Made by a program: the position numbers and the translations under genes
The notes under the pieces: generated by a model
Seen by the model: the letters and a program-made list of their open reading frames with translations, nothing else
Database searches by the model: none
What the model was told of the DNA's origin: nothing
Origin: Candidatus Poribacteria bacterium
GTDB lineage: Bacteria > Poribacteria > WGA-4E > PCPOR2b
DNA length: 64,000 bases
Reading direction: 5' to 3'
Assembly: GCA_965218095.1 (NCBI GenBank)
Contig: OZ244587.1
Location: 4,352,001 to 4,416,000, forward strand
Shown here: positions 1,999 through 52,545 of the stretch, piece by piece
How the letters are laid out: the number at the start of each line of letters is the position of its first letter
Numbering within the stretch: the first letter of the stretch is position 1

Positions 1999-2660
1999 TC
2001 ATCTCACAACTGTGGTTTCTATGATTCGCACTGAATATTCCCCCGGATAGCGCGCGTTAGGCATATAAGGGTCTTCTATATCCAAGCTACCCGCCCGGAT
2101 TGTTATCTTGTTTGTCCTTTCTACCCTGAAGAAAGCGGTATTCTCGTAGACTCCCATCCAGATACTGCCGTAGAATCCTCCACTTCTGTGTGAGAACCAG
2201 TCTACTACCCCGCCGTGGCTATCCAGGTATTCTTGCTCTCTTGACTCTCCTTTGAACTGCCCCATGAGTACCCTTCTGCCGTAGTCGAAATGTATCCCAT
2301 TTAAGTTGTCGATTTGCTGTCTTTTCGGCGCGCCGGGTGCAAGGTCCTCGAGTTTTTCTTCGTCTTCCCCGTATTCGCAGACGACATACCCTTTGGGGCA
2401 ACATCCACTACTCACCACTGTAACCGCTACGATGGGTTGCTGCTCCTCGATAGTAATGAATCCCTTTTCAGGGATGACTCCATTCCTGTTTGAGTATCAT
2501 ACTCCGCAAAGTTTCCGAGGGTGACATTGACATAATTGAACGGCGACACGTACTCGTGGTGTTCGGTTGAAAAAGCTTCGGGCGTCTTTGGGGGCCCCAG
2601 CCTCTTCCTGTCTTCATCTGTGAATTGACTGAAGATCTTCACTGGCTCTCTTCTCATTTT
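1999..2660 (-). pseudogene. Hypothetical protein, apparently split by a frameshift/stop near 2500
   Basis: Two consecutive minus-strand ORFs (2427-2687 and 1999-2418). The frame of the second stays open upstream to ~2500. GGAGG precedes the first. No recognisable family. Confidence 0.35.
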
Positions 2661-2850
2661 AACAATACCTCCTTGGGGTTGCTCCAAATAATGGAGTGAT
2701 GCAGGGGAGGGTTTCTACGCTTGAAGGCGGGTTCAGAGCCCCGTCATACAACTGAACTTATAGCGAGTAAAACGCGCGCTTCTCCTGTCATCCTCAACGA
2801 AGGGACGGATCTCTTGCACCTTAACGAGGAGATTCTTCGCTGCGCTCTAT

Positions 2851-49617: not shown

Positions 49618-52545
49618 CTATCCACCATGACACCTTTTGTATTTTTTACCGCTCCCACAGGGACATGGATCGTTGCGGCCAATCTTCGGGAGCTCGCCAG
49701 TTGCTTGACGGGAGGCGAATTCAGCGGTATTACTACTGGCTGACTGCCTATCAGATGCTCCTGCAATGGCTCCATGTGTTCTCGCGGCGGCACCACGACG
49801 GGACGCACGCCGAGGAAGAGCGCGTTGGGGGGCTGCTGTCTCGATACGTGCTTTGAAGATGTATTCGCTGACCTCCTCTTCAATTCGTCGGTACATCGCT
49901 TCAAAGACGCTGAAGGCTTCATTTTTGAAAACGACAATCGGATCTTTGCCAGCATAGCCACGCAGATAAATTCCCTCTTCGATGTAATCGATATTGTACA
50001 GATGGTCTTTCCAGTGGTGATCGATTCGGTCAAGAAGAATCAGCCGCTCAAGGGTACGCGTCAATTCTGAACCCATTTCGGCTTCACGCTGTTCGTAAAG
50101 CTGGCGTAGCAATTTTAGGAGGTATTCTCGCAGTTCAGCCCGACTCATGTTCAATGGACGCTGTAAATCCACCGCATCGATAGTGAAGGTATTCGCCTGC
50201 CAGGTCTTGAAACCTTCAATCATCCCGTCGTAAATATTTAGCCTGTCCTCTTCTTTCCTGATAACGTATGTGTTCTGATTCTCATCATCGGAAATCAGCC
50301 ACTCGCTGCCTTTCTTTTGGCCCGAAACGATGGCGTTTTGGGACAGAGCAAGTCCATTGGCTTCAAGTTCCCCCGACAAATCCGTCGAGATTGGGTCGTT
50401 ACTGTCTAACTGATTTTGGAATTCTGGGCGAATGCTGAGTAACTTCCCGTCATTGATATGCTCGGGTAAATGTTCCTCAAGGTAATCATCCAACACATTT
50501 TCGATCATTTCCCAAACTGTCTCTTTGAGGTCGTTACCCTCCAAAATGCTATCGCGCAAACCGTAGATGCTTTGACGTTGCGAATTCATCACGTCGTCAA
50601 ACTTGAGCCGATTCTTTCGCATCTCGAAGAAAACTTGCTCAACCCGCTTCTGCGCTTTTTCAATCGCTTTGGTCACTGCTCCGTGTTCAATTGGTATATC
50701 TTCTTCCATGCCCAACCGATCCATGATACCAGATAAGCGCTCAGATCCAAACTTCCGCATCAAGTCATCTTCGAGCGAGAGGTAGAAGCGAGACGCCCCC
50801 GGGTCGCCTTGCCGACCGGAACGCCCACGCAATTGATTATCAATCCGCCGCGCTTCATGCCGCTCTGTAGCGACGATATGCAGGCCACCTGCCTTCAGCA
50901 CCTGTTCACGATTTGGGGTGCAAACGGCTTCAGCTTCAGCAAGTGCCGCTTTCCACTCTGCTGAATCCTCGTCAACAGTGGACGGGTCTATTTTCTTCTT
51001 CCGAAGGATCTCTTTCGCCATACCCTCCGGATTCCCGCCGAGCAAGATGTCCACGCCGCGGCCTGCCATATTTGTCGCGATTGTCACGGTGCCGGGGACA
51101 CCCGCTTGGGCGATGATTGTCGCTTCACGGGTGTGTTCTTTGGCGTTCAGCACTTGATGTTTTATATCGCGCCGTTTTTTGCGGAGCATCTGACTCAATT
51201 TTTCAGAATTTTCGATTGAAATTGTCCCAACAAGCACGGGGCGTCCCTGCTCATGCTGTTCGATAATGTCCTCGAGAACCGCCCGGTATTTCGCTGCCTC
51301 CGTCTTATAGATCACGTCCGGGTGATCTATCCGAATCATCGGTTCGTTTGTGGGGACGACGACGACATCCAATCCATAGACATGCGCAAATTCGGCGGCT
51401 TCTGTCTCAGCTGTGCCTGTCATGCCTGCCAACTTCTCGTACATCCGGAAATAGTTTTGATAAGTGATTGACGCACCGGTTTGGTTTTCCTGCTTAATCC
51501 GCACATGCTCTTTGGCTTCGAGGGCTTGATGGAGGCCTTCGCTGAATCGCCTGCCTTCCTGCAATCGTCCCGTAAATTCATCGACAATGATGACCTCCCC
51601 GGCCTGCACGACATAGTCCACGTCACGTTTGTAAAGGGTGTGTGCAATCAGCGCCTGATTGACGTGATGCACCAGGTTCATGCTTTCGTGACCGTAGAGA
51701 TCTTCTAGCCCTAGAAGGCGTTCTATCTCTTCCACTCCTTCCTCTGTCAGCGCGACGGTGCCGCGTTTACTGCTTTTTTCGTCGCGCTCATAATGCCTTT
51801 CATCTTTCAGTCGCCGTGTTGCGGCGTCGATTTTTTTATACAGTTCGACCGGCTCCCCTTGTGGTTCAGCAATAATCAACGGGGTCCGAGCTTCATCGAT
51901 CAGGATGCTATCGACTTCATCAACGATTGCGTAGTGGTGTCCGCGCTGTACCTTGTCTTCAAGCGCTCGCCCTTTATTATCCCACAGGTAATCAAAACCG
52001 AATTCGCTGTGCACGCCGTAAGTCACGTCCGATTTATATCCGAGTTTTTTCAAATCATGGGGCAAACCGCTGTAAGTTAATCCAACCGTCAGCCCAAGGA
52101 AGGTGTAGACGTGTCCCATCCATTCTGCGTCACGCTTGGCAAGGTAATCATTGACAGTCGCAACATGGACCCCTGTTCCCCCTAGCGCATTCAGATAGAC
52201 AGAAAGCGTCGAGGTCAGGGTTTTCCCTTCACCGGTTTTCATTTCGGCAATGTTCCCGCGATGGAGCGCGATTCCACCCATGAGTTGGACATCGTAATGA
52301 CGCTGCTCCAAAGTCCGCACCGCGGCTTCACGCACAACAGCAAACGCTTCCGGCAAGAGATCATCAAGTGGTTCTCCCGCATCCAACCTTTCGCGAAAGT
52401 GCGGCGTTTTTGATTGGAGTTCTGCATTAGATAAACGCTGCATCTGTGGCTCCAATTGATTGATTCTCTCCACGATTGGTTGGAGCCGCTTCATATCCCG
52501 GTCTTGTTTACTGCCGAAAACCTTAGTTAAAACTTTTTGAAACAT
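49618..52545 (-). CDS. secA: Preprotein translocase subunit SecA, with a 74-aa insertion
   Basis: [53 protein letters not shown] and C-terminal [19 protein letters not shown]. Confidence 0.98.

Follow-up and report, generated by a model that had tools for sequence, protein, structure and literature searches.

The locus is a secA gene (Table 1) in a 64-kb stretch of Candidatus Poribacteria DNA, the whole of which we call the window. Its product matched five Pfam families (SecA_DEAD, SecA_PP_bind, P-loop_SecA, SecA_SW and SEC-C), all above their cut-offs, and its membership of the SecA family by sequence is borne out by solved SecA sequences, which matched it at E 1e-36. It gave the single SecA match at E<=1e-50 in its own genome (G000) and is the sole SecA found there.

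Table 1. Features of the secA locus, in window positions. SecA residues are numbered with Met as residue 1, which places the first DG at 699-700 and the second at 773-774.
Feature	Positions	Strand	Basis or remark
secA	49618-52545	minus	975 aa; ORF list and translation, Pfam
SecA wing-and-scaffold region, residues 618-899	49849-50694	minus	Pfam SecA_SW; its helical wing part hosts the insert
Insertion module, SecA L702-Y772, ~70 residues, 213 bp	50230-50442	minus	Profile match, hmm 1-71
Upstream GACGGGA copy, codons D699-G700 and base 1 of K701	50445-50451	minus	One codon before the module's first residue (offset -9)
Downstream GACGGGA copy, codons D773-G774 and base 1 of M775	50223-50229	minus	Directly after the module's last codon (offset 0)

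Within the wing-and-scaffold region, this SecA carries extra residues. The Pfam SecA_SW match spans residues 618-899 and yet takes up just 199 of the 200 profile positions, and solved SecA sequences cover residues 601-694 and about 799-899 but not the wing loop in between. In the predicted structure of residues 610-905, model residues 23-276 aligned with only 180 residues of Bacillus subtilis SecA (3jv2_A; Z 10.5, 170 aligned). Read on the minus strand, the extra segment runs [10 protein letters not shown]...[11 protein letters not shown] within the 975-aa protein. The original prediction, that an additional in-frame coding segment sits inside secA, proved correct, since the segment is real and absent from the SecAs of 20 related genomes; its report of GACGGGA (TCCCGTC on the forward strand) at both segment ends, 222 bp apart, was also reproduced in position.

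If the segment was inserted, sister taxa might retain an empty site, and such a site was found. In 20 of 41 related genomes, SecA matched as two pieces, about 1-696 and 776-974, and an alignment of 13 of these two-piece SecAs with 17 insert-bearing ones showed one clean gap spanning the whole segment. All 16 sister-genus genomes have the module in SecA, and the 20 genomes that lack it there belong to other genera and families. In a tree computed with the module masked, the 17 SecA carriers form one clade (support 0.996), and a single gain in SecA is therefore most likely; from these alignments and trees, that gain would most likely fall on the ancestor shared by the window's genus and the sister genus. 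Since its gain, the SecA module has been inherited vertically.

The segment is one member of a large family. A profile search of the window's own genome returned 16 copies in 15 open frames (i-Evalues 6e-31 to 1e-16), hosted by SecA, SecD, RpoB (twice), sigma-54, Wzy, CtaA, YibE/F, AI-2E, an ABC exporter, a histidine kinase, DUF5916 and DUF5683 proteins, a cytochrome-c-like protein and two HEAT proteins. We counted about 40 host architectures across six genomes, and further hosts in the phylum include RpoC (G041), AspRS, trigger factor, signal peptidase and Omp85 proteins; the module is present in RpoB of both G000 and G003. Hosts are found both in the cytoplasm (SecA, RpoB, sigma-54, AspRS) and among periplasmic parts (the P1 region of SecD, signal peptidase, Omp85). 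Copies start with L-F/L and finish with L-N-I/V-Y, followed by D, P, M, N, A, H, K, E, V, S, T, Q or R, and the ends of the unit are sharp across hosts. The sequence motif that the original prediction had given for unrelated proteins agrees with the family consensus nearly letter for letter, and its expectation of in-frame copies in many unrelated, partly essential proteins held for all 16 copies in this genome.

Within the phylum, 167 of 176 genomes carry the module, including all 41 of the closest relatives (5-41 matches each). In three genome sets from outside the phylum, it was detected in 0 of 5, 0 of 201 and 6 of 301 genomes, and these sparse extra-phylum copies sit in giant open frames of 3661 and 19211 aa. 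Tandem arrays, as well as sensor, pentapeptide and baseplate-like hosts, were seen among 2465 representative proteins. The module matches none of the families in Pfam and NCBIfam; DUF3806 (PF12713), the only library family with any match, was rejected at 19.3-19.5 bits against a gathering cut-off of 21, the match coming from one of the 16 copies and covering 50 of 86 profile positions. A stand-alone representative compared with proteins of similar length returned only itself. Our literature searches returned no description of the module, and a term search of the main single-cell Poribacteria paper gave 0 mentions of insertions, SecA or RNA polymerase.

The original prediction read the 7-bp repeat as a target-site duplication made by a mobile domain, which, lacking terminal inverted repeats, would fit a reverse-transcription or recombination route; a transposon-like insertion into secA is the most direct form of this reading. 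The 7-mer is indeed exact at both ends and lies inside a 15-nt stretch that is 80% alike, and removal of the segment plus one repeat leaves a 13-residue loop equal to that of the empty-site SecAs of three genus g5 members and one family f3 member. However, the repeat occurs in only 1 of the 17 orthologous SecA copies, the other 16 sharing at most GACG across the two sides, and the nearest empty-site SecA has a loop of 15 residues, the length of the occupied allele's two flanks when no duplication is assumed. The boundaries of the segment had been defined post hoc by the repeat itself. GACGGGA occurs 10 times in the window (8.9 expected), and 4.2% of 5000 random pairs of 30-nt windows placed 213 nt apart share an exact match of at least 7 nt, 45% reaching 5 nt. 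Flanking repeats around the 16 copies of the genome, which the prediction had proposed to examine, were no better than this control: the best were 4 nt in six copies, 5 nt in seven, 6 nt in one and 7 nt in two, and one of the two 7-mers was out of flanking position. At the junctions of one copy whose presence differs within a genus, no bases were duplicated.

Other expectations of transposition fared no better. As originally stated, the two ends of the segment hold no inverted pair; the longest pair (11 nt, 82%) lies wholly at the upstream end. A DNA profile search of the own genome found the 16 in-frame copies and no intergenic or out-of-frame ones, the next match having E 0.57. DNA identity between these copies averages 51% and reaches at most 68% across different proteins, and in genome G002, with 39 module matches largely in tandem arrays, the best identity of any pair is 59%; recent copies were thus found in neither genome, and all copies are old and diverged, showing no trace of a reverse-transcription or transposition route. 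We rejected a transposon or MITE with target-site duplication, for which flanking repeats beyond chance, inverted ends and intergenic copies were all wanting. Judged by these comparisons, the 7-bp repeat looks coincidental, and we consider it highly improbable that GACGGGA is a true target-site duplication. The original prediction had tied coincidence to a segment confined to SecA, with no empty site and no copies elsewhere; none of this is the case, and coincidence is nevertheless the reading of the repeat that we favor.

Copies of the module do share ancestry at the DNA level. Identical codons are used at identical residues at a rate of 0.49, against 0.36 expected, and the Ser34 codon is TCN in 83 of 83 copies; this shared codon choice establishes the copies as homologous and of common DNA descent. 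They lie in frame within about 40 types of host protein, which are located on either side of the membrane. From lineage to lineage, sites switch between occupied and empty. The module is cleanly absent from the G000 orthologues of AspRS, UPF0182, DUF4861, an M23 peptidase, a DsbH-like protein, CCA/poly(A) polymerase and Omp85, all occupied in other Poribacteria. A VWA-like protein holds the module, at the same site, in 2 of 20 genomes from one genus, these two not being sisters, and in 11 of 11 genomes from another family. One copy that varies at the genus level (in G017) has at most 41% identity to any resident copy and no close relative in its own genome. A tree of 96 modules grouped them by host and did not resolve the donor of the SecA copy, and our search for donors of the copies found none.

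We then considered what kind of protein the module encodes. AlphaFold predicted the isolated module with confidence (pLDDT 87.4, pTM 0.73) in the order strand-helix-helix-four strands, and the same secondary structure was predicted inside the SecA 610-905 model, which supports the earlier view that the module would be a self-contained protein domain. Conserved positions are mostly core hydrophobics. Foldseek returned 0 structural relatives at E<=0.001, and the best VIA-align match against 48161 chains (Z 4.5) was no clear relative. Over 17 SecA orthologues, dN/dS was 0.15 for the module and 0.05 for the rest of SecA (dS about 0.74); the module, as part of the genome's sole SecA, is under purifying selection, a result compatible both with a real function common to the copies and with mere tolerance. 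Contigs from RNA libraries span 50102-50392 with 0-1 mismatches and bridge the module's distal junction, although they come from four sponge metatranscriptome runs of one study and such libraries can hold DNA. They contain no skipping joints; among the contigs listed, the upstream junction (50442/50443) is unbridged and so uninformative either way.

On balance, we favor the reading that the SecA segment is a copy of an uncatalogued, autonomously folding alpha/beta domain of ~70 residues that serves as a promiscuous insertional domain in Candidatus Poribacteria. Alternatively, the module may be a domain with an ordinary function, such as binding a shared partner or ligand, for which selection has repeatedly recruited it; its spread would then say nothing about selfishness. 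Its dN/dS of 0.15 over 17 species, its retention in all 16 sister-genus SecAs, its sparse occurrence outside the phylum, its tandem arrays and its sensor, pentapeptide and baseplate-like hosts are consistent with such a role. We nonetheless think this unlikely, given that one partner is hard to imagine for hosts that are both cytoplasmic and periplasmic, that conservation falls mainly on core hydrophobics rather than on a polar site and that many hosts fare well without the module in sister lineages.

The RpoB copies raise a further possibility, as they carry nuclease-like domains at one site within the module. G000, G024, G011 and G017 have an HNH-like segment (CxxC..HH..N..CxxCH, a pattern recognized by eye) that G003 lacks, so that its presence varies within one genus; the Pfam HNH family matched it at 13-17 bits (E 0.007-0.1), below the cut-off of 21.4. 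In the second RpoB copy of G017, REase_MTES_1575 (PF18741) is nested with 101.8 bits against a cut-off of 38.2 (E 2.2e-29, positions 1-96 of 96). Within one order, RpoB ranges between 1306 and 1818 aa in length, and the number of modules varies within a genus.

These nested domains could mean that the module is a selfish in-frame mobile cassette, retained in the protein and moved or homed by the endonucleases of some copies, most copies being decayed, non-autonomous remnants comparable to mini-inteins. Patchy alleles and nested nucleases are the expected leavings of a homing-type element, and the same-site VWA-like module in two non-sister genomes and another family, the clean empty sites in many hosts and the sharp unit boundaries fit this picture as well. 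Against it, the HNH match is below the Pfam cut-off, no nuclease of either type lay next to another module in the sequences examined, and another family has the HNH-like segment in an RpoB without the module, so that RpoB may simply tolerate inserts; moreover, neither recent nor intergenic copies turned up, and codons at the ends of the module are under no extra constraint. We regard the cassette as a doubtful explanation. Still less probable, though worth stating, is its most specific form: that Poribacteria hold a new domain-level mobile element, an unspliced and harmless surface-loop plug moved between alleles and genes by nested endonucleases (HNH-like, REase_MTES_1575), of which the SecA copy would be a fixed non-autonomous remnant and which would make a non-splicing counterpart of the intein.

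Several known systems resemble the module in part. Rickettsia palindromic elements (RPEs) are introduced in PMC10969869, citing Ogata 2000 and 2002, as DNA palindromes of ~150 bp that are grouped with MITEs and lie in ORFs in about half of cases. As RPEs are described there, they and the module are both short in-frame units in many unrelated genes, essential ones included, whose conserved peptide is kept and seemingly compatible with the host fold. Unlike RPEs, the module is 213 bp long without palindrome or inverted ends, has 16 of 16 copies in open frames at a mean DNA identity of 51%, and encodes a product that is predicted to be well folded and is under purifying selection. The BEAN/HABAS insertions of RNA polymerase beta/beta', in the account of PMC11515920, are likewise compact domains inserted repeatedly at nonequivalent sites of RpoB/RpoC and a few other proteins, by a mechanism described there as unclear. 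That account describes them as few, very old events that later ceased in bacterial evolution, whereas here RpoB length varies within one order and module number within a genus, across about 40 host types. In the structure searches with the module, which gave 0 Foldseek matches at E<=0.001 and a best VIA-align Z of 4.5, no RNA polymerase chain was among the matches listed.

Inteins and mini-inteins, finally, resemble the module in that they occupy essential genes in frame, occur as empty and occupied alleles and are patchily distributed, and the RpoB copies nest an endonuclease-type domain. However, the module has neither a first-position Cys, Ser or Thr nor a terminal His-Asn with a following nucleophile, Pfam returned no Hint/intein family for either SecA or the insert at E<=1, and no removal was seen at the RNA level, in agreement with the earlier statement that the segment is not an intein. 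The module is not a target-site-duplicating transposon, a palindromic element or an intein. What stands of the overall original reading is the self-contained, in-frame module with many hosts and empty sites; the 7-bp target-site duplication does not.

Under our preferred reading of a promiscuous insertional domain, new copies would arise rarely, when DNA rearrangement pastes an existing copy into another gene, and would survive only if they lay in frame and in a surface loop. The module termini would have to lie close together to leave the host fold intact, because there is a beta-strand at both ends and the host flanks are adjacent in empty-site orthologues. Their later spread or loss might come about through vertical descent, allelic exchange and precise deletion. 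The occurrence of one unit, with sharp ends, in about 40 hosts is awkward to explain by random illegitimate recombination, although decay of unconstrained flanks could give the same pattern. The SecA copy most likely adds no new catalytic part and is tolerated as a surface decoration on what is the most variable domain of that protein.

Recent evolution is usually thought to have added no new domains to essential, slowly evolving machines. Within this single phylum, one small domain has come to occupy SecA, SecD, RpoB, RpoC, sigma-54, AspRS, trigger factor, signal peptidase, Omp85 and others, and sites with and without it can still be seen between genera and even inside one genus. The family offers a naturally assembled collection of permissive insertion sites in core proteins, a small natural scaffold on which domain insertion could be engineered and a test case for whether protein domains can act as selfish units in bacteria. 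It merits a new family entry, which would allow long housekeeping proteins in sponge-symbiont genomes to be annotated correctly. As a side observation, a scan of viral contigs gave one weak locus, without a profile match, and the module's only neighbors in a protein atlas were clusters of hypothetical phage proteins (0.91, with 92-117 shared features), a likeness that is weak by the atlas's own criteria.

SecA in the window is encoded on the minus strand, where the reading passes through an extra in-frame segment in one open frame, and all five SecA Pfam families score above cut-off in the protein. The Pfam wing-and-scaffold family extends over residues 618-899, yet this span fills no more than 199 of 200 profile positions, leaving about 80 residues of the region as extra. 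The segment lies in the helical wing part of SecA: alignments to solved SecA sequences stop at residue 694 and resume at about 799, and when residues 610-905 were modelled (pLDDT 74), positions 23-276 of the model matched just 180 residues in the SecA of B. subtilis (3jv2_A, Z 10.5, 170 aligned). Protein Data Bank SecA sequences of other phyla do not contain it. The original prediction had described a 7-bp repeat flanking an in-frame segment of secA, and both repeat positions, their spacing and the in-frame reading were correct.

Features of secA, rpoB and aspS discussed in the text (G000, the genome holding the window; G017, a related genome)
Feature	Location	Strand	Description
secA	49618-52545 of the window	minus	single open frame, 975 residues
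Module in SecA	50230-50442 of the window	minus	residues L702-Y772
GACGGGA, two copies	50445-50451 and 50223-50229 of the window	minus (coding strand)	222 bp apart
rpoB (L019)	G000:C1:1014200-1019224		HNH-like zinc-finger segment at residues ~336-462, nested in first RpoB module
rpoB of G017 (L252)	nt 2323-2700		second RpoB module, with nested REase_MTES_1575 domain (PF18741), E 2e-29
Aspartyl-tRNA synthetase gene	G000:C1:5847477-5849264		precisely without module

We searched 41 related genomes, all of which have SecA. In the sister genus g4, 16 of 16 genomes match residues 1-974 continuously at 86-90% identity, and in one more genus, where a contig end splits the gene, residues 489-974 match ungapped. 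For 20 genomes, spread over four further genera within the same family and over three other families, the SecA match breaks into two pieces (~1-696 and 776-974); for the remaining three, just the first piece was above threshold. An alignment of 30 genes, 17 with the segment and 13 without, contains a single clean gap covering exactly the segment, and thus the empty-site orthologues that had been proposed as a check exist. When the module columns were masked, the 17 carriers formed one clade in the SecA tree (support 0.996). One gain explains this most simply. Since G000 has one SecA gene and no second, the insert-bearing protein must work.

The segment belongs to a family. When every six-frame open frame of G000 was searched with a profile until convergence, 16 copies in 15 open frames emerged, bearing out the original prediction that similar segments occur in unrelated proteins of this kind of organism. 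The hosts are SecA, SecD, RpoB (two copies), sigma-54 (inside the core-binding domain), an O-antigen-ligase-like Wzy protein, CtaA/COX15, YibE/F, an AI-2E transporter, an ABC exporter, a HAMP histidine kinase, DUF5916/CBM9 and DUF5683 proteins, a cytochrome-c-like protein and two HEAT-repeat proteins. Copies begin L-F-S-I/V and finish L-N-I/V-Y, their consensus agrees with the motif given in the original prediction, and their identity to the SecA copy is 25-45%. None of the 16 belongs to a Pfam or NCBIfam family; one touches DUF3806 below cut-off, and one touches LolA at chance level.

We found the insertion in SecA and the multi-copy family to be solid, unlike the reading of the 7-bp repeat as a target-site duplication. 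The 7-mer is present in one of 17 orthologous SecA copies, while the other 16 share at most GACG across the two sides, and in the window it sits within a 15-nt stretch that is 80% alike between both sides. In the closest empty-site SecA, the loop of 15 residues (13 in some others) corresponds to both flanks of the occupied allele with zero duplication. The best flanking repeats of the 16 G000 copies are 4-7 nt, like those of 5000 random controls. No inverted ends were found on the SecA segment, as the original prediction had stated, and a DNA profile detected no copies in G000 beyond the 16 in-frame ones (next best E 0.57). The copies are old: DNA identity in G000 averages 51% and peaks at 68% for a pair in different genes, and a genome with 39 matches has no pair above 59%. 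The tests for a transposon-like element failed: the repeat, the inverted ends, out-of-frame copies and copy age. Codons of the outermost conserved residues match genome usage, while internal positions keep ancestral codons (e.g., Ser34 is TCN in 83 of 83 copies), which shows common DNA descent of the copies without extra constraint at the ends.

An AlphaFold model of the module, built with the 16 copies, has a pLDDT of 87.4 and a pTM of 0.73, with a predicted order of strand 2-4, helices 6-13 and 20-28, and strands 38-43, 47-52, 57-64 and 67-70. Foldseek returned no solved structure at E<=0.001, and VIA-align, run in full against 48161 chains, found no match to a solved structure either (best Z 4.5). 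The best-kept positions among 96 copies (L1, F2, L12, L22, F26, L33, S34, W48, D52, Y59, L68 and Y71) mark, for the most part, a hydrophobic core. Across 17 species, dN/dS is 0.15 in the SecA module versus 0.05 in the rest of SecA (dS ~0.74): the module's rate of evolution is about three times that of the remaining protein, and it is still clearly constrained. In four sponge metatranscriptome runs from one study, contigs carry the module with 0-1 mismatches and bridge the distal junction, and no joints skipping it were reported among them. This gives modest support to retention in mRNA, because RNA libraries are not always free of DNA.

Five further genomes were included with all their module loci, which amounted to 79 distinct host open frames; 78 of these were scanned against Pfam (a 103-residue fragment was left out). 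The sister-genus genome shares most hosts with G000, while other genera and families add AspRS, RseP, UPF0182, M23 peptidase, a DsbH-like protein, ECF-sigma fusions, BamA/Omp85 proteins, CCA/poly(A) polymerase, FtsX, signal peptidase I, S41 peptidase, trigger factor, ComEC, RpoC, C25 peptidase and others, giving ~40 Pfam-distinct host architectures in the six genomes. Alignments show a clean empty site in the G000 orthologues of AspRS, UPF0182, DUF4861, M23, the DsbH-like protein, CCA/poly(A) polymerase and one Omp85 protein. In aspS of three families (G004, G029 and G034; loci L070, L080 and L100), the module lies between the anticodon-binding and catalytic domains. Copies in membrane proteins lie between predicted membrane segments. 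By homology with the surrounding Pfam domains, the SecD copy lies in the periplasmic P1 region, and the SecA, RpoB and sigma-54 copies are cytoplasmic, so the domain serves on both sides of the membrane. That it was recruited for a function of its own would accord with the constraint on the SecA copy; set beside so varied a range of hosts and their clean empty sites, we regard this as unlikely.

A VWA-like protein (498 residues in G017) shows a patchy allele pattern across the phylum. Five genomes of the same genus lack its module (79-86% identity). The site is occupied in two of the 20 genomes of the genus, G017 (L259) and G022 (L287), which are non-sisters on the SecA tree. A second family, f3, has it filled in 11 of 11 genomes (L288-L291; 40-43% identity), and every remaining genome searched shows a clean empty site. 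No duplicated host bases were found at the DNA junctions in G017, whose closest copy in its own genome is merely 41% identical. Between G017 and G022, module identity is 91% and that of the host N-terminal part 89%; against the other family, the values are 36-39% and 57-58%. Fresh transposition does not fit these identities. The pattern would fit an old insertion with repeated precise loss, or allele exchange between species.

Within the order, RpoB length varies between 1306 and 1818 residues. The first RpoB copy in G000 is interrupted between LFQVDLNS and DLTDG by ~115 residues with the pattern CxxC..HH..N..CxxCH, which is HNH-like yet below the Pfam cut-off. This segment also occurs in G024, G011 and G017 (65-68% identity), while the module of G003, from the sister genus, is intact without it. 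The REase_MTES_1575 domain in the second G017 module occupies the same internal site. In rpoB of two family f2 genomes (G031 and G040; L253 and L254; 1814 and 1818 aa), an insert of ~460 residues placed elsewhere in the gene contains an HNH-like segment together with several ~50-residue repeats and no module copy. Free-standing HNH-like genes of 168-306 residues occur in 14 of the 41 genomes searched. These nested nuclease-like segments keep a homing-type reading alive but do not establish it. No such segments were found beside other modules among the sequences examined, and a selfish, endonuclease-assisted cassette seems to us improbable.

The reading we favor, with modest confidence, is that the module is a promiscuous, self-folding insertional domain, which would rarely be copied into surface loops, be retained there under selection and be cleanly lost in some lineages. 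Its nearest precedents are inteins, Rickettsia palindromic elements and the BEAN/HABAS insertional domains of RNA polymerase; it departs from each in a defining feature. We found no description of it in the literature, including the main single-cell Poribacteria paper (supplements aside).

The module is present in 41 of 41 closest relatives (5-41 matches each) and in 167 of 176 genomes of the phylum, as compared with 0 of 5 assorted genomes of other phyla, 0 of 201 in the phylum of a Polyangia-labelled genome and 6 of 301 in that of a Deltaproteobacteria-labelled genome. Among 1.84 billion representative proteins, 2465 carry it (E<=0.001), some with up to seven copies; these include pentapeptide-repeat, HAMP/Cache/SpoIIE, caspase, UPF0182 and baseplate-J-like proteins, stand-alone module proteins of 110-118 residues, and one protein named as from a Deltaproteobacteria genome bin. 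Given these counts, the varied hosts and the stand-alone forms, the module looks like an ordinary protein domain that is rare outside Poribacteria and has expanded hugely within them. The six positives in the Deltaproteobacteria-labelled group have one or two copies each, some in giant frames of 3661 and 19211 residues. The larger frame, outside Poribacteria (L294, G581:C2), holds two weak copies, which hints that giant surface proteins may be an older home of the domain.
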